Numbered from the stretch's first letter, positions 17,771-47,718 are shown. The stretch is 64,000 nucleotides of DNA from an uncultured Clostridia bacterium (GCA_946182865.1 CAMHAV010000002.1:744-64743), one strand, 5' to 3'. The notes: a model not told the origin generated them from the sequence alone. Numbers and translations are program-made.

Positions 17771-17805
17771 CATTTCACACTTCACATTTCACACTTCGCA
17801 TTTTT
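17771..17805. repeat. heptamer array, 5 units (CATTTCA CACTTCA CATTTCA CACTTCG CATTTTT)
   Basis: Read directly. This is the reverse complement of the AGTGTGA-type unit at 37919. It abuts the recD2 stop codon (17804-17806) and fills most of the spacer to comFC. Confidence 0.8.
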
Positions 17806-21414: not shown

Positions 21415-21933
21415 ATGAAAAAAAGGGCATTGGTGCATTCGGTCAAAGGCGCGGCGGCATTTGCCGTGACGGTGCTTCTGCTGTGTCTGCCGCTGGCTTC
21501 GTGCGGCGAAAAGCCCGCCGATATCGACATGTACGATCTATGCAAGACCATGAGCGGCGCGTCCGACAAATGGCAGGAGATGAAATACGCCAGCAGCGAG
21601 GACAATGCCCCCGCCGAACTGCTTGAAAACATTTCGGATATGGATTACGCCAAGGTCAACGCTTTCTTTATTTACTACGCCGCCGAAGGGGCAGGCAATG
21701 CCGACGAAATCGCCGTCATTCAGGTCAAAAACAAAGCCGATCTGACCGAGGCGGCCGACTCGCTGACGGCACATCTCAATAAGCGCAAATCGCTGTATGC
21801 CACCTATGACCGCAGCCAGCTCGCCAAGCTCGAAAAAGGCAGAGTCATCACCAAAAACGGCATAGCCGCGCTCATCGTTGCGGACGACGCCGATCAGATC
21901 GAAGATATCTTTTTCCAAGCCGTTAGCCGTTGA
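21415..21933 (+). CDS. DUF4358-like lipoprotein
   Basis: Lipobox LPLASCG. The pattern ...EIAVIQVKNKADL...AALIVADDADQIEDIF matches my memory of DUF4358. Confidence 0.6.
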   Translation: MKKRALVHSVKGAAAFAVTVLLLCLPLASCGEKPADIDMYDLCKTMSGASDKWQEMKYASSEDNAPAELLENISDMDYAKVNAFFIYYAAEGAGNADEIAVIQVKNKADLTEAADSLTAHLNKRKSLYATYDRSQLAKLEKGRVITKNGIAALIVADDADQIEDIFFQAVSR

Positions 21934-22009
21934 CCGTTAGCTGTTGGCCGTTAGCGGTTAGCCGTTAGCCATTGGCGGTTAGCCGTTGGCCGTTAGCCGT
22001 TGGCGTTTG
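21919..22009. repeat. heptamer array, 13 units of GCCGTTR
   Basis: Chunked by hand: GCCGTTA GCCGTTG ACCGTTA GCTGTTG GCCGTTA GCGGTTA GCCGTTA GCCATTG GCGGTTA GCCGTTG GCCGTTA GCCGTTG GCGTTTG. TT is invariant at positions 5-6. The first two units contain the last codons and the stop of the DUF4358 gene. Confidence 0.9.
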
Positions 22010-22136: not shown

Positions 22137-22164
22137 GCTAACGGCTAAGCGCTAACAGCTAACC
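22137..22164. repeat. heptamer array, 4 units in inverse orientation (GCTAACG GCTAAGC GCTAACA GCTAACC)
   Basis: Reverse-complement flavour of the 21919 array, 127 bp downstream of it and about 24 nt before the MBOAT start. Confidence 0.85.
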
Positions 22165-33744: not shown

Positions 33745-36636
33745 TTATTCCTCCACATAATTGCGTATGCTCTGAATGTAATAGGAACCGTTGGGTCTGA
33801 GCGTGAGGACATATTCCATGAATTTATAGCACTCCGGTTCTTCCTCGGAGGAGGTCAGCGTCATTTCCTCCTGACTGATGTACCCCACGACCAGCGTGAC
33901 ACGGTCGCTCTTCTGCGCCATTTTGGTAATGATCGCAGTGGGGCCCATCACGCCGCCTTCCGAAATATGGAACGTGTTTTCAATGGTATCATAATAATAA
34001 ATGGCACTGCCGTCCGATTCGCTCAGAACATTTTTGTTGAGCTGCACTTCATTGCCAAAGAGTTCCCTGCCGGCCTGCTCCACCTGATCGGCGGCAATGA
34101 CAATCTTTTTGGTCGCGTCATAGGTGTATTCGTACCCTTCGGTTTTTCTCATTTCATCAAGCACACGCCAGATGGCGCTTTCCAGCAGCATCTGGTTGTC
34201 CGCTTTTTCAATAGACTCAAAAGGTGCGGGGTCATTGAGCACCACGGGCGCAATAAATTCGGTGTATTCCGTTTTCTTTTCGCCGATACCGCCCAGATTG
34301 GTGAATCCTGTCACAACGGTTTTCACTACGCTCACGAGTATGAGCGCCGCAAATACGATTACCACCGCTCCGATAAACGCGGAAACTCTGCGGCGTGCGC
34401 GCTTGGTACGTGATGCCATTTCGTCACCGTCCTCGTCTTCGTCAAGCCACTGCTCCTGAAAATCCGCGTCGTCAAAGTCGGTCGGCAATACGACGGGGCC
34501 GTCCGGCAGCTTAAACACGGCGGTAGGATTCTCGGAGGTTCCTTTGGCGTGCAGATAAAGTGTGTCGTCCTGTCCCATGCTGATGGCAGGGTCAAGCACT
34601 TTCTGATTGTCGTCTATAATCAGTACGGATTCAAACACCCTCTCGCCGTCTTCGGCCGTCTTTTCACGCGGCTGATACGGCTTGACAACTTCGTCCTCGC
34701 CGTCGGTTTTGGTGACTTCCTGCGTGACCGGAAGTTCTTCCGAAGGCAGCTGGAGGCTGAATATGTCAATATTGTCGGGCTGTTCTTCCGGCGGAAGCGT
34801 ATCCTCGCTCTCCTGCCGCAGCACTTCGGCCAGTTCGGCGGCTTCCACCAGCTTTTCTAATTTTTCCTTGACCGCGTCCTCACCGCTGATCGGTTCTTCC
34901 TCCCGGGGGCTTTCGAGCTCTTCGGGGGCAATTACTTCCGTCTCGGCAAAGATTTCATCCTCGATTTCGGAAATGTCGATATCCACCGACACCACATCGG
35001 AGACGTCAACAGATGTTTCTTCGGACTGATCGGCCGATGTTTCAGGCAGCGTCACGGCAACCTCTGTCACGCTGCTGCCCGACGGTTCGTCGGACTGCGG
35101 CTCCACTGCCGCGTCGGACGGCTGTTCGGGTTCTTCCTCCCTGTCGTCCCCGGCTTCTTCCGCCGCGGGGGATTCTCCGGCGGCCGCAGCGTTGTCCTCT
35201 GTATGCAGAAGCGCATTGATGTCCACCTGCGGGATGATTTCTTCCTCTGTCTCGGTTTCATCTGACAACGGAGCTTCTTCCTCGTTCCCCTCTTGGTTTT
35301 CCAGTTCCATGTAGGACTCCAGCAGACGGCGGGAGAGAACGCTTGAACTGTCCTCCGGCGCAGATTCCCCGGAGACAGTCTCCTCCGAGGCGGTGCTTTT
35401 GTCGGCGTGAGGCGGCGTGATCTCATGCCTGCCTTCCGAATGATCGCTGTCAAACGCCATTGCACCGACGGCAAACTCCGCACTTTTACTGATAACATTT
35501 GCCTTGTTTACCGCTTCGCGTTTCTCACGCTCCACAGCCTGCAAAATTTCCTCGATCGTGGTCGTGCTGACGTCTTCAATCACATCCTCAGCCATACCAT
35601 CCGTCATGGTGATATTTTCCACCGATGTCTGCGTTTTCTTGTCAAAATCCAGCACGGGAATGAGATCGGACGGATGGAGCGGTCTGTTTTCCGGGACGGC
35701 AGGGGCCTGTTCCTGCGCGGTTTCCCGTGCAGCTTGTGCTTCTTGCTCATTTTCCTTGGCAATCTTATCATAGGGCAGCGGTTCGTCATCGCCAAGCAAA
35801 ACGGGTCTGACTGGCATGACGTCGTCGGAAGAAACATCTTCTCCAAAATCCACGCGCTGCTTTGGCTTTATCTTCTTGCCGTTTTCCTTATGATCGTCCG
35901 TTTCACGGGGAGGAAATGCCGCGTCATAGAATTCGTCCCAATTAACGCCGCCTTCCGGGTTTCTTGCCTTTTCGGTTTTGGCCATGCTTTCAATCGCGTC
36001 GGACATCGACGAAATATCGTCGATCATCTGCTCCGACACCGAATGTGCCGCCACGCCTTTTGCGATTTTATCCAGCGCGGCTTTTTTGGCTTCCATCTTG
36101 GCCGTTTTGGCTTTTTTGGCCGCCTCTCGGTCGGTGCGCTTTCTGCGGTGGCTGCCGCTGCGATGCGGCGGCTGAGACGCTGTTCGCGTTTCGTTCTCCG
36201 TATGGGACGCAGTCTCCTCCGGCTCCGGCTGCGCACGATAGGGCTGCGGCACGTTGTCGGTCGGCTGCGGTGCGGGAACAGGCTCCTGCGGGGCCTGCTT
36301 GGCCTGCGAGGGAAGCTGCTGATTTATCACGGTTTCGGCGGTCGCCCACTTGGGAGCGGGAATGTTGACCGTCGGGGGCACATACCCCGCCGACGCGGGC
36401 GGCCATGCAGCGTCCGCCATGCGTCTGGCTTCCTCCGCGTCCCGCGAGGACTGCACGGCAGACGCTTCGCTCATGGGACGCTTTTTCGCGTTCGGGTGAT
36501 AATTGCCGTCCGCCGAATAGCCGGTGTACGGATTCGGACGGTTGCTGTATTCTTCGCTGTAACGCTTGACAGGTTTCTTGTTTCTTTTGCGGCGGGGCTG
36601 ATTTGGATTGTTCTTCTGATTGTTATTGCTTGCCAC
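33745..36636 (-). CDS. 963-aa single-pass membrane protein with ~740-aa disordered cytoplasmic region and ~200-aa external domain
   Basis: Basic N-terminus (PRRKRNKKPVKR), then Pro/Gln-rich and long acidic tracts. One TM helix (VSAFIGAVVIVFAALILVSVV) is followed by a folded-looking C-terminal domain. It starts 18 nt after the proA stop. Confidence 0.6.
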   Translation of the reverse strand: MASNNNQKNNPNQPRRKRNKKPVKRYSEEYSNRPNPYTGYSADGNYHPNAKKRPMSEASAVQSSRDAEEARRMADAAWPPASAGYVPPTVNIPAPKWATAETVINQQLPSQAKQAPQEPVPAPQPTDNVPQPYRAQPEPEETASHTENETRTASQPPHRSGSHRRKRTDREAAKKAKTAKMEAKKAALDKIAKGVAAHSVSEQMIDDISSMSDAIESMAKTEKARNPEGGVNWDEFYDAAFPPRETDDHKENGKKIKPKQRVDFGEDVSSDDVMPVRPVLLGDDEPLPYDKIAKENEQEAQAARETAQEQAPAVPENRPLHPSDLIPVLDFDKKTQTSVENITMTDGMAEDVIEDVSTTTIEEILQAVEREKREAVNKANVISKSAEFAVGAMAFDSDHSEGRHEITPPHADKSTASEETVSGESAPEDSSSVLSRRLLESYMELENQEGNEEEAPLSDETETEEEIIPQVDINALLHTEDNAAAAGESPAAEEAGDDREEEPEQPSDAAVEPQSDEPSGSSVTEVAVTLPETSADQSEETSVDVSDVVSVDIDISEIEDEIFAETEVIAPEELESPREEEPISGEDAVKEKLEKLVEAAELAEVLRQESEDTLPPEEQPDNIDIFSLQLPSEELPVTQEVTKTDGEDEVVKPYQPREKTAEDGERVFESVLIIDDNQKVLDPAISMGQDDTLYLHAKGTSENPTAVFKLPDGPVVLPTDFDDADFQEQWLDEDEDGDEMASRTKRARRRVSAFIGAVVIVFAALILVSVVKTVVTGFTNLGGIGEKKTEYTEFIAPVVLNDPAPFESIEKADNQMLLESAIWRVLDEMRKTEGYEYTYDATKKIVIAADQVEQAGRELFGNEVQLNKNVLSESDGSAIYYYDTIENTFHISEGGVMGPTAIITKMAQKSDRVTLVVGYISQEEMTLTSSEEEPECYKFMEYVLTLRPNGSYYIQSIRNYVEE

Positions 36637-36654: not shown

Positions 36655-37899
36655 TTATCTGATTTGACCGTCTCCCTGAATGATAAACTTGGAACTGGTG
36701 AGCTGTCGGATGCCCATCGGCCCGCGCGCGTGAAGCTTCTGGGTGGAGATGCCGATCTCGGCGCCCAGACCGAACTCCCCGCCGTCGGTGAAACGGGTGG
36801 AGCAGTTGACGTAAACCGCCGCGCTGTCTATGGAGGCGGTAAATTTCTCGGCGCTGAAATAATCCGAGGTCACGATGCACTCGCTGTGACCGGTGGAATA
36901 GCGCGCGATATGATCAATGGCGTCGTCAAGGGAATCCACGACCCTGCACGCCAGTATGTAGTCCAGAAATTCGGTTGCGTAATCTTCCTCTGTCGCGGGA
37001 ATCACGTTGTCGCCCAGAATCGCCCGTGTGCGTTCGCAGCCGCGAAGCTCCACCTGCTTGCCGTCGAGTCTGGCCTTGATGACGGGCAGCGCCTTTTCGG
37101 CGATATCCCGATGCACCAGAATCGTTTCGATGGCGTTGCACACGCTGGGACGGGAGGTCTTGGCGTTGTAAATAATATCGGCCGCCATGTCGATATCGGC
37201 GGACGCGTCGACATACACATGACAGTTGCCCACGCCCGTTTCGATCACGGGGACGGTGGAATTCTCCACCACGGCGCGGATAAGTCCCGCACCGCCGCGC
37301 GGAATCAGCACATCGAGGTACCCGTTCATGCGCATCATCTGATTGGCGCTTTCACGGGAGGTATCGGTGACCAGCTGCACGCAGTCGGCCGGAAGTCCGG
37401 CTGACGCAATCGCTTCCCGCAGCGTTTCGGCAATGGCGGTGTTGGAGTGAATGGCCTCTTTGCCGCCCCGCAGGATGCAGGCATTGCCCGATTTCAGGCA
37501 AAGCGCCGCCGCGTCGGAGGTGACGTTGGGACGCGCCTCAAAGATAATGCCCACCACACCGAGCGGCACACGCACGCGACGGATCCGCATACCGTTGGGA
37601 CGCACGCTGCCTTCCATAATCTCACCGATCGGGTCGCCCAGCGCCGCCACCTGACGGATACCGTCCGCCATGCCCGCGATTCTTTCCGGCGTGAGGCACA
37701 GACGGTCGAGCAGACTGTCGGACATGCGGTTTTGTCTGCCGTTTTCCAGATCGACCTCATTGGCGGCGATGATTTTGTCCGTCTTTTCTTCCAGCGCCGA
37801 AGCCATTGCCTTCAGCGCCTTGTTTTTCAGATGGGTATCCGCTACGCCGAGAATTCTCTCGGCCGCCTTGGCATTGCTGCCCATTGTATTAAAATCCAT
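36655..37899 (-). CDS. proA: glutamate-5-semialdehyde dehydrogenase
   Basis: The catalytic Cys context VCNAIETILVH and the length of 414 aa. AGGAGA lies 5-10 nt upstream of the ATG. Confidence 0.95.
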   Translation of the reverse strand: MDFNTMGSNAKAAERILGVADTHLKNKALKAMASALEEKTDKIIAANEVDLENGRQNRMSDSLLDRLCLTPERIAGMADGIRQVAALGDPIGEIMEGSVRPNGMRIRRVRVPLGVVGIIFEARPNVTSDAAALCLKSGNACILRGGKEAIHSNTAIAETLREAIASAGLPADCVQLVTDTSRESANQMMRMNGYLDVLIPRGGAGLIRAVVENSTVPVIETGVGNCHVYVDASADIDMAADIIYNAKTSRPSVCNAIETILVHRDIAEKALPVIKARLDGKQVELRGCERTRAILGDNVIPATEEDYATEFLDYILACRVVDSLDDAIDHIARYSTGHSECIVTSDYFSAEKFTASIDSAAVYVNCSTRFTDGGEFGLGAEIGISTQKLHARGPMGIRQLTSSKFIIQGDGQIR

Positions 37900-37918
37900 T
37901 GCGTTCTCCTTTTAAAAG

Positions 37919-38051
37919 AGTGTGAAGTGTGAAGTGTGAAGTGTGAAGTGGGAAGTGGGAAGTGGGAAGTGGGAAGTGTGAAATGTATCACTGACCACTA
38001 ATCACTCACCACTGACAGCTAACAGCTAACGGCTAATCACTGACTACTGAA
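37919..38051. repeat. heptamer array, 19 in-phase units of three flavours
   Basis: AGTGTGA x4, AGTGGGA x4, AGTGTGA, AATGTAT, CACTGAC, CACTAAT, CACTCAC, CACTGAC, AGCTAAC x2, GGCTAAT, CACTGAC, TACTGAA (indexed by hand). It spans the last proB codons through to about 10 nt before the proA RBS. Confidence 0.9.
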
Positions 38052-38854
38052 GAAACACTGTCGCGGGAGGGAACAAAGTGCGTTCCCACCACCTTGCCGT
38101 CGATGAGGTCGTAGAGATTGTGCGGGTCGCTGCCCACGATGTAGGTGTCTATACCGCAGGAACAGGCGTACTGCGCCGCTTGTAACTTGGTAACCATGCC
38201 GCCGGTGCCGCGTTTGGAACCGGAGCCGCCCGCCATTTCCTTGAGCGCGTCGGTGATTTCCAGCACCACGGGAATCTGCACCGCCGACTCGTCCTCGCGG
38301 GGATTGCGGTCGTACAATCCGTCGATATCAGTGATCAGAACCAGCGACTGCGCGCCCACAAGATTGGCGACGATAGCGGAGAGATTGTCGTTGTCCCCGA
38401 TGTTGTTGCCGGTCAGCTCGTCAATGGCAACCGTGTCGTTCTCGTTGACGATGGGGATAATCGACATTTGCAGCAGCGCGGACATACACTCGATGACATT
38501 GTTCCGGTGATGCTCGTTTTCCACGTCGTAGCGTGTGAGAAGCACCTGCGCCACCTTGATGCCGTATTCGGCAAAGAGCTTATCATACAAAAACATCAGT
38601 TCGCACTGACCGACGGCCGCCATGGCCTGCCGTCCTGCCACATCCTTGGGACGTTCCTCCAGACCGATCTTGCCTACGCCCACACCGAGCGCGCCCGACG
38701 TGACCAGCACGATCTCCCGACCGCTGTTGCACAGGTCGCTGATGACGCGGCAAAGCCGATCAATTCCGCGGATATTGGGCTTACCGTTTTCATAAGTCAG
38801 CGTGGAAGTCCCCACCTTGATGACGATGCGCTTTGCGCTCTTGATATTTGCCAA
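38033..38854 (-). CDS. proB: glutamate 5-kinase (short form without PUA domain)
   Basis: IVIKVGTSTLT N-terminus and an amino-acid-kinase fold of 273 aa. Confidence 0.9.
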   Translation of the reverse strand: MANIKSAKRIVIKVGTSTLTYENGKPNIRGIDRLCRVISDLCNSGREIVLVTSGALGVGVGKIGLEERPKDVAGRQAMAAVGQCELMFLYDKLFAEYGIKVAQVLLTRYDVENEHHRNNVIECMSALLQMSIIPIVNENDTVAIDELTGNNIGDNDNLSAIVANLVGAQSLVLITDIDGLYDRNPREDESAVQIPVVLEITDALKEMAGGSGSKRGTGGMVTKLQAAQYACSCGIDTYIVGSDPHNLYDLIDGKVVGTHFVPSRDSVSSVVSD

Positions 38855-38910: not shown

Positions 38911-38939
38911 ATTATACCAAAAAACCGCCGTAAATTCAA
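38911..38939 (-). promoter_or_regulatory. sigma-A type promoter for proB (TTGAAT, 17 nt, TGgTATAAT) on minus strand
   Basis: Reverse complement of 38911-38939, about 55 nt upstream of the proB ATG. Confidence 0.6.
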
Positions 38940-47135: not shown

Positions 47136-47476
47136 ACATTCAGATTTTCGGCAAGGCCAAGTGCTTTGACACCAAAAAGGCGGAGCGTTTCTTTAAAGAA
47201 CGCGGCGTGAAATACCAGTTCATTGACGTGGTGAAATACGGCATGAGCAAGGGCGAATACAACAGCGTCAAAAACGCGGTGGGCGGCATGCGGCAGCTCA
47301 TCGACGAGAAATCCAAGGCTTACGAGGACAACTACTGCGCCTATCTCGCGGACGAAGCGGCGGTGGAAGAAAAGCTGCTGGAACATCCCGCCATGTTTCG
47401 CACGCCTATCGTGCGCAACGGAAAAAAAGCCACCGTGGGCTACTGCCCCGACGTGTGGAAAACGTGGAATGATTAG
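47132..47476 (+). CDS. ArsC/Spx/MgsR-family thioredoxin-fold protein (YffB-like)
   Basis: MNIQIFGKAKCFDTKKAERFFKERGV is the family signature with a single N-terminal Cys. The GTG start overlaps the queH stop (GTGA). Confidence 0.75.
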   Translation: MNIQIFGKAKCFDTKKAERFFKERGVKYQFIDVVKYGMSKGEYNSVKNAVGGMRQLIDEKSKAYEDNYCAYLADEAAVEEKLLEHPAMFRTPIVRNGKKATVGYCPDVWKTWND

Positions 47477-47624
47477 CCGTTAGCCGTTAGCGATTAGCCG
47501 TTAGCCGTTAGCCGTTAGCGATTAGCCGTTAGCGATTAGCTGTTAGATGTTGGCGGTTGGCCGTTGGCGGTTAATGATTCGTGATTCGTAATTAGTGATT
47601 AATGGTTCGCCATTAATCACTAAT
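47471..47624. repeat. heptamer array, 22 in-phase units (CGTTAGC/GATTAGC type, degenerating 3')
   Basis: Chunked by hand. Units 1-11 all carry TAG at positions 4-6, and units 1-21 all carry TT at positions 3-4. The array begins inside the last codons of the ArsC-family gene (stop TAG at 47474-47476). Confidence 0.9.
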
Positions 47625-47631
47625 TTTGTTT
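47591..47631 (+). terminator. perfect 15-bp hairpin built from the last five repeat units, plus T-tract
   Basis: ATTAGTGATTAATGG (47591-47605), loop TTCG, CCATTAATCACTAAT (47610-47624), then TTTGTTTG. Confidence 0.75.
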
Positions 47632-47689: not shown

Positions 47690-47718
47690 TTGACATATCT
47701 GCCCGATAGGTGGATAAT
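47690..47718 (+). promoter_or_regulatory. sigma-A type promoter (TTGACA, 17 nt, GATAAT)
   Basis: Read directly, about 48 nt upstream of the ilvA ATG. Confidence 0.55.

Follow-up and report, generated by a model that had tools for sequence, protein, structure and literature searches.

A strain-variable heptamer array in the proB-proA spacer of an uncultured rumen Clostridia bacterium and its likeness to the arrays that bracket PF05635 genes

The proBA operon in a 64-kb stretch of DNA from an uncultured Clostridia bacterium (the window, 64,000 nt in full) raises a simple question: why are its two genes held apart by tandem repeats? The median proB-proA spacer is about 22 nt long across 68 related loci that contain both genes, while here it is filled by a 133-nt repeat tract (37919-38051), and an earlier reading of this DNA made from its sequence alone (the sequence-only reading) was right to call such a spacer unexpected. 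The tract is a compound, hypervariable heptanucleotide array that has expanded in one species-level lineage of uncultured rumen Clostridia. It is restricted to that lineage, dispensable and oriented with transcription, it consists of words that recur in the genome, and it shares its type with the arrays flanking genes of the PF05635 family elsewhere. The sequence-only reading missed both the strain variability and the membership in this transcription-oriented class of heptamer arrays.

Read directly from the sequence, the tract is 19 x 7 = 133 nt in a single register. On the plus strand it reads (AGTGTGA)4 (AGTGGGA)4 AGTGTGA AATGTAT CACTGAC CACTAAT CACTCAC CACTGAC AGCTAAC AGCTAAC GGCTAAT CACTGAC TACTGAA. 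The operon lies on the minus strand, with proB (38033..38854; glutamate 5-kinase without a PUA domain; TIGR01027, E 8.7e-94, residues 8-267 of 273 matched) ahead of proA (36655..37899; glutamate-5-semialdehyde dehydrogenase; NF001221, E 5e-188). In the mRNA sense the proB-side sub-array (37989..38051, minus strand) consists of nine heptamers with more G than C, CAGTAGT CAGTGAT TAGCCGT TAGCTGT TAGCTGT CAGTGGT GAGTGAT TAGTGGT CAGTGAT. A single junction unit, ATACATT (37982..37988, minus strand), follows and holds no gene or gene remnant. The proA-side sub-array (37919..37981, minus strand) again has nine heptamers, TCACACT (TCCCACT)x4 (TCACACT)x4, in which G is absent over 63 nt and C makes up about 43%. 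Tandem Repeats Finder divides the tract into three adjoining arrays of period 7 or 14 (37919-37986, 37987-38013 and 38015-38036), the first with period 7, 9.7 copies, 95% matches and a score of 101. The repeats supply the proB stop codon TAG (38035-38033) and the five codons before it (S-V-V-S-D), so the 19 in-phase heptamers fill the spacer and provide the end of proB exactly as the sequence-only reading had described. Because a 7-nt period is not divisible by 3, the three adjacent TAG units place a stop codon in every reading frame. At the other end, the proA ribosome-binding site GGAGAA (37904..37909, minus strand) begins 9 nt past the last repeat unit, in agreement with the earlier estimate of about 10 nt.

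The closest public genomes are metagenome-assembled genomes of uncultured rumen Clostridia (RUG genomes, labelled Ruminococcus, Clostridiales or Acutalibacteraceae), with ProA identities of up to 97%. The array is confined to one clade, made up of the window and the loci L081, L082, L001 and L002, all of which have the AAAAGGAGAACGCAATG junction at the proA ribosome-binding site in common, and within this clade both the number and the mix of units differ. L081 and L082, whose ProA is 100% identical to that of the window, carry four extra TAGCYGY units on the proB side. On the proA side the window has nine units, L081 eight and L082 seven, the differences being one and two units of TCACACT. L001 has TCACATT x3 and one TCACACT on the proA side, and L002 has five units per side. 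In the sister clade, the proB stop of L013 is followed by AGTGTGA x3, which is exactly complementary to the proA-side unit of the window, and L006 has a short inverted heptamer pair in the spacer. Two further members of this clade (L004 and L009, with 86-88% ProA identity) have an 11-nt spacer, TAAGGAGNNAATNTATG, and no arrays; in these short-spacer relatives proB ends in HFVPQK. The proBA operon therefore does not need the tract. With tandem copies and strain differences of whole units, the tract is a variable-number tandem repeat, or long simple-sequence repeat. Since whole 7-nt units are gained or lost between strains, it is best described as slippage-driven, and slipped-strand mispairing would be the process that adds and removes units.

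The tract is not a chance pattern. A strict sliding test over the 64 kb gives three runs of period 7, none of any other period from 4 to 12, and none in 20 shuffles. In a laxer test period 7 gives nine runs (541 nt), the most runs and by far the most bases among periods that are not multiples of 7; period 14, a harmonic of 7, picks up the period-7 arrays again. Period 7 recurs at four or five further intergenic sites of the window, and all the other arrays are intergenic or overlap a stop codon. A short array of AGTGTGA/AATGTGA words in the mRNA sense lies between recD2 and comF (17771..17803, minus strand; Tandem Repeats Finder and sliding test). Twelve units of TTAGCCG/TTGGCCG type (21918..22004, plus strand) begin inside the end of a DUF4358 gene and form the 5' arm of an inverted pair, whose 3' arm is a complementary GCTAACG-type array just before the start of an MBOAT gene (22137..22163, plus strand). 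The two arms have 13 reverse-complement 7-mers in common and form a predicted duplex of -50 kcal/mol (z -7.7). They are separated by a constant non-coding core of 132 nt, in which a profile hidden Markov model (HMM) finds no PF05635 remnant; the architecture resembles that of the cassettes described below, with a non-protein content. About 14 TTAGCCG-type units start at the stop of an ArsC-family gene and grade into TTAGTGA-type units (47471..47625, plus strand). These arrays also vary in multiples of 7: that at 21918 has five units in L216 against 12 in the window, and that at 47471 differs in unit number and mix among strains L205, L207 and L209.

Two features tie the arrays of the window together. 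First, their words recur, with TTAGCCG-type units at three sites and AGTGTGA/AATGTGA-type units at two. Second, the order of the arms is the same at the other arrays on both DNA strands, G-rich after the upstream stop and C-rich before the downstream start, so that array polarity tracks transcription and not the replication strand. The proB-proA tract has the same polarity: read along the transcript, its 5' arm is rich in G and its 3' arm rich in C.

This polarity is also that of a protein-coding cassette, and one such cassette occupies the same intergenic site in another rumen species. In L016 (70% ProA identity) the proB-proA spacer contains a gene for a 119-residue PF05635 protein, a '23S rRNA intervening-sequence protein' (E 7.8e-29) of the four-helix-bundle type, whose family was first recognized in intervening sequences of ribosomal RNA. 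In this cassette (L016:300-860) GGGTGAA/GGTTGAA heptamers precede the gene and complementary CCCTTCA/CCTTTCA heptamers follow it, and these arms pair around the open reading frame (ORF) with -140.6 kcal/mol over 561 nt (z -4.6). L093-L102 likewise carry a PF05635 gene in the proB-proA spacer between inverted arrays of GGGTGAA and TTCACCC, with arm copy numbers that vary by strain, and the nearest relatives of L016 have neither the gene nor the arrays at that site. Elsewhere PF05635 genes have unrelated neighbors (L083-L092, L103-L112, L153/L161 and L197-L200). They stand between co-oriented genes such as Mod and Res of a restriction system or amidohydrolase and MatE genes, upstream of a purD-like gene, and between aminotransferase and DAHP synthase genes, in spacers of only tens of bases. 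A Y1_Tnp transposase gene lies near the cassette in L104.

A metagenome scan with the PF05635 family alignment gives 80 loci, or 76 dereplicated gene clusters. Seventy-three clusters offer 100 nt or more of flank on the side in question, and counts of one or both sides are based on 70 loci. A strict period-7 array is present in 54/73 upstream and 48/73 downstream flanks; 60 of the 70 loci have at least one such array and 38 have arrays on both sides. Random segments of the same contigs, used as a control, carry a period-7 array in 2/188 cases, and in the flanks each period from 4 to 11 other than 7 is seen at most once. On the sense strand of the gene the 5' arm has 26% G and 7% C, and the 3' arm has 9% G and 25% C. 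Neighboring genes are mostly co-oriented with the PF05635 gene (57/68 upstream, 41/56 downstream), and the PF05635 gene starts a median of 56 nt after the upstream stop. The two arms of a locus match each other specifically: 9.2 reverse-complement 7-mers are in common with the locus's own 3' flank, compared with 1.4 with other loci, and an ungapped arm match with a median of 31 nt and 90% identity is found in 56 of the 70 loci. The mismatches in these arms show no excess of G.U (25) over A.C (33), the commonest being G opposite A. Because G.U is not favored over A.C, the complementarity may be kept at the DNA level or may simply be inherited. Two protein searches return thousands of PF05635 relatives. 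Many PF05635 contigs are shorter than 2 kb, suggesting that short-read assemblies often break in heptamer arrays.

The family is not confined to the Clostridia. Its profile matches PDB entry 2RLD, a pentamer from Bacteroides thetaiotaomicron, with E 1e-45. Bacteroides genes 98-100% identical to 2RLD lie between araD and araA, flanked by strain-variable inverted arrays of AATTGAC and ATTGTCA. Another bacterium of the Bacteroidaceae has a 74%-identical homologue at this site, and there both arms have changed together (AATTGAG/AATGGAT and the complement). These loci (contigs L193-L196 and L201-L204) suggest that the araD-araA cassette is old and inherited vertically.

Arrays also occur alone. Solo arrays within 1.5 kb of a cassette have on average 6.55 7-mers in common with its arms and 0.48 with those of other loci, and the maximum in 300 permutations is 1.76. 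The 5'-arm units are enriched for AAT/AGT (47/55, with 29.5 expected). Words of the window occur in cassettes elsewhere: L114 has AGTGTGA with CTTCACA in its 3' arm, and L188 has AATGTGA arms. IMG/VR contigs of 33-67% GC (L218, L221, L222, L224 and L225) contain TTAGCCG and CTTCACA arrays, some as inverted solo pairs placed immediately before a ribosome-binding site; in the IMG/VR contigs scanned no PF05635 gene lies beside arrays of window words, and all of these arrays are solo. Particular heptamer words are thus used again in distant taxa. We consider it reasonably probable, judging by word content, polarity and location, that the proB-proA tract is itself a cargo-less ('solo') member of an intervening-sequence-like class, whether as the remnant of a cassette, a miniature derived from one or an empty site where one could land, and that it is tolerated while passively uncoupling the two cistrons.

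Several observations weigh against this assignment. The two sub-arrays of the window share 0 complementary 6- or 7-mers, unlike typical cassette arms, and their complementarity is limited to a 4-5-nt AGTG/CACT core. The tract encodes no PF05635 protein, whereas L016 does so at the same intergenic site, and neither tblastn nor a six-frame profile HMM search detects a PF05635 gene or remnant in the tract or the 64 kb, the best HMM score (E 0.52) being nowhere near the arrays. For this reason we infer, rather than observe, the descent of the tract from a cassette. Finally, arrays are present in 6/18 other intergenic gaps of the cassette contigs, a control that is underpowered at 18 gaps. Since arrays are this common at other gaps, the association could mean that PF05635 genes sit in array-rich genomes, and not that the arrays come from cassettes.

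A tract without a PF05635 gene and without truly complementary arms is also what an ordinary local simple-sequence repeat would look like, expanded by replication slippage from proto-repeats already present between the genes and resembling the cassettes by coincidence; in many bacteria heptamers would be the unit length that expands most readily. Length polymorphism in whole units agrees with such an origin, and so does the abundance of heptanucleotide long simple-sequence repeats, the most abundant class in most prokaryotic genomes according to Mrazek 2007 as cited in PMC4679880. A purely local process does not account for the recurrence of TTAGCCG- and AGTGTGA-type words at several unlinked sites of the window and in unrelated contigs of widely differing GC content, nor for the consistent orientation to transcription. 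The recurring words, the AAT/AGT enrichment of 5' arms and the match of solo arrays to neighboring cassette arms argue against an independent local origin of each array. We leave this explanation a minor but real chance.

A second alternative gives the tract a function in RNA. A ladder-like hairpin formed by the two halves might be cleaved, for example by RNase III as in rRNA intervening sequences, might stabilize the proB segment, or might mask a C-rich Rho-loading stretch, and would thereby set the proB:proA expression ratio. The sequence-only reading had likewise proposed a long imperfect hairpin. In the mRNA sense the tract alone folds to -31.8 kcal/mol, better than its shuffles (z -2.4), and the duplex between the two arms reaches -32.9 kcal/mol (z -3.5 against mononucleotide shuffles). 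With flanks the fold is -39.1 kcal/mol and the advantage shrinks to z -1.1 against dinucleotide shuffles; the plus-strand fold (z -2.3) is antisense to the operon. Related tracts disagree as well. L081 reaches z -5.0, mostly from TAGCYG units that pair among themselves, while L001 and L002, the nearest other relatives at species level, have the same operon and are at z -0.3. A hairpin is thus marginal: the tract alone folds better than its shuffles, but this advantage is not kept with its flanks or throughout the clade, and the arms share no complementary 6- or 7-mers.

Other signals of an RNA element are similarly divided. Polarity tracks transcription, the proA-side arm is a long G-free, C-rich stretch, and the stems of intervening sequences around S23p ORFs are RNase III substrates (PMC4990558). 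A hairpin built from heptamer-type units does exist at the end of the 47471 array (47590-47625, plus strand), a perfect 16-bp stem AATTAGTGATTAATGG-TTCG-CCATTAATCACTAATT followed by TTGTTTG, and it has the look of an intrinsic terminator placed after the ArsC-family gene. Beyond this hairpin, at 47690-47718, comes a strong promoter-like site for ilvA. In the proB-proA tract a minus-strand scan of 37900-38060 finds no terminator-like or promoter-like site; only CUUUUAAAA comes after the last unit, without the G+C-rich hairpin and U-run of an intrinsic terminator. A search of Rfam with the tract at E<=1 gives no family match, the best hit, Mahella-1, scoring 16 bits where the threshold is 70.7. 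Rfam matches are also absent from 12 PF05635 cassette loci. The unit numbers of the two arms vary independently between strains, the G.U and A.C counts in cassette arms give no sign of RNA-specific maintenance, and the relatives with 11-nt spacers keep the operon without the tract. A conserved functional hairpin is not supported, because the folds are weak and inconsistent and there is neither a terminator or promoter site nor an Rfam match. We regard a functional RNA element as improbable, and from these predictions a dedicated proline-responsive or processing function does not appear to be indicated.

A third alternative treats the transcript as a multivalent platform on which an RNA-binding protein would recognize NAG, or some other short motif, every 7 nt, coupling proA expression to a ligand. 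HutP binds UAG-N4 repeats and TRAP binds (G/U)AG repeats; a HutP-type site comprises two groups of three UAG triplets, with 4 nt between triplets, in a hut operon leader, and goes together with a HutP gene. The likeness is in the regularly spaced NAG triplets of the transcript and, for HutP, in the 7-nt periodicity. Eight NAG triplets at exact 7-nt spacing had been counted by the sequence-only reading, and eight or nine are present, nine if the whole proB-side sub-array is taken; they run in the same sense as the arrays at 21918 and 47471 relative to their genes, also as it had stated. Within them TAGCCGT TAGCTGT TAGCTGT fits UAG-N4-UAG-N4-UAG, one set of three, in a proBA and not a hut context. 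HutP and TRAP sites are short and conserved, lie in hut and trp 5' leaders and are paired with a terminator, whereas the tract is variable and intercistronic and has many counterparts that follow unrelated genes (DUF4358, ArsC-family and recD2). The number of sites changes between strains, close relatives have no such sites at all, and no candidate binding protein is identified. Many arrays of the same class, such as AATTGAC, AATGCGC and TTCATAA, contain no NAG. The NAG periodicity appears to be a by-product of purine-rich units, and we consider a protein-binding platform very unlikely.

Three further candidates were rejected: a CRISPR array by the absence of spacers and the period of 7, a protein-coding repeat by the stop codons that interrupt every frame of the proB-side sub-array, and a promoter phase-variation switch by the location of the tract inside the operon and not in a promoter.

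The surroundings of the operon are as follows. One promoter-like site, TTGAAT-17-TATAAT with a TG (38911..38939, minus strand), lies upstream of proB; it is a consensus match and the only site in the promoter scan placed to drive proBA. At gathering score Rfam matches no family in the whole 64 kb, and no T-box or other known leader is found upstream of proB. No tRNA or tmRNA genes are found in the 64 kb. Directly downstream of proA is an acidic, low-complexity ORF of 963 residues (33745-36636, minus strand) with no Pfam or NCBIfam match; its length varies, with 983 residues in L081, the locus with identical ProA, compared with 963 in the window.

Several known systems resemble the tract in part. 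Short tandemly repeated repetitive (STRR) arrays of cyanobacteria were reportedly described by Mazel et al. in 1990. Like these STRRs and other heptanucleotide long simple-sequence repeats, the arrays of the window are intergenic tandem 7-nt units, many per genome and of mixed related words, and strains differ in 7-nt steps. They differ from STRRs in the host, a rumen Clostridia bacterium, and in the words, TTAGCCG and AGTGTGA compared with CCCCAGT, TTGGTCA and CAACAGT. Given these words and nearest genomes that are rumen Clostridia metagenome assemblies, the tract does not appear to be a cyanobacterial STRR. Arrays of the window type also have a transcription-linked polarity and a link to PF05635, and in the literature searched we find this link described nowhere for STRRs. 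In the intercistronic REP/BIME-type repeats of enterobacteria (repetitive extragenic palindromic units and bacterial interspersed mosaic elements) the REP units are about 35-40 nt long, conserved in sequence and mobilized by RAYT transposases. These repeats too are dispersed non-coding imperfect palindromes that operons tolerate between their genes and that can shift the balance of expression between the cistrons on either side, but REP units are not tandem heptamers.

Another parallel is with the TAACTGA direct-repeat arrays of Beggiatoaceae, Cyanobacteria and Bacteroidetes (MacGregor 2015, PMC4679880). These are intergenic heptamers, mostly 'forward' and just upstream of start codons, with some overlapping the end of the upstream ORF; they show strain-specific 7-nt indels, form longer mixed arrays in Bacteroidetes, and have short repeat-free counterparts in close relatives (PMC4679880). 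The unit is different, copy number is mostly 2-6, and they are not described as inverted pairs; S23p or four-helix-bundle genes are not mentioned (PMC4679880). A further parallel is with the 23S rRNA intervening sequences that carry an S23p (PF05635) ORF in Coxiella, Leptospira, Brucella and Xanthomonas (PMC4990558). In Coxiella burnetii strain-variable GACAGAT heptamers lie directly upstream of the S23p ORF, and a 28-bp terminal stem is cut by RNase III (PMC4990558). The cassettes of L016 and other loci have the same plan, with a PF05635 ORF between complementary termini, a stem of about 28-31 bp, purine-rich strain-variable heptamers 5' of the ORF, and insertion in the sense of the host transcript. 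The tract of the window departs from it in having no ORF, in lying in the spacer of an mRNA operon and not in helix 45 of 23S rRNA, and in halves that are only weakly complementary.

Heptamer arrays as such and intervening sequences with S23p ORFs are thus already known. In the literature searched we find no description of a general association between heptamer arrays and PF05635 genes, the exception being the remark on heptamers in the Coxiella intervening sequence, and no description of such arrays in rumen Clostridia. To our knowledge, intergenic heptamer arrays have been recognized for decades in cyanobacteria and later in other phyla, with no accepted origin or function. The PF05635 protein, which we take to be related to Avd, a cofactor in diversity-generating retroelements, is known in structure, and apart from those retroelements we know of no role for the family.

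For the operon itself, taking the tract as a cargo-less member of the intervening-sequence-like class, the consequences would be modest. The tract would be tolerated because it supplies proB with a stop in every reading frame and does not disturb the proA ribosome-binding site, and it would persist as selfish or neutral DNA. It separates the proB stop from the proA start by 133 nt, and because of this separation translation of proA would have to begin from a Shine-Dalgarno sequence of its own and not through tight coupling. It would also leave proA preceded by a C-rich stretch that lacks G and is weakly structured. The tract is probably harmless baggage in the proline operon.

For the family, we tentatively suggest a wider unity, which as a whole is a good deal less certain than the assignment of the tract. 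PF05635 genes and their inverted, hypervariable heptamer arrays, oriented with transcription, could be one widespread, intervening-sequence-like and possibly mobile element, found in intercistronic spacers and in rRNA of Firmicutes, Bacteroidetes and Proteobacteria; solo arrays, perhaps including the STRR and TAACTGA arrays, could be its cargo-less derivatives or landing sites; and the PF05635 pentamer could recognize or maintain the heptamer 'dialect' of its genome. The arrays can serve as strain markers and probably cause breaks when gut and rumen metagenomes are assembled. The link between arrays and PF05635 genes is a strong, quantitative, cross-phylum association between two enigmas and a lead worth testing, for which B. 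thetaiotaomicron BT0352 (2RLD) in the arabinose operon of a genetically tractable host offers an accessible experimental system.

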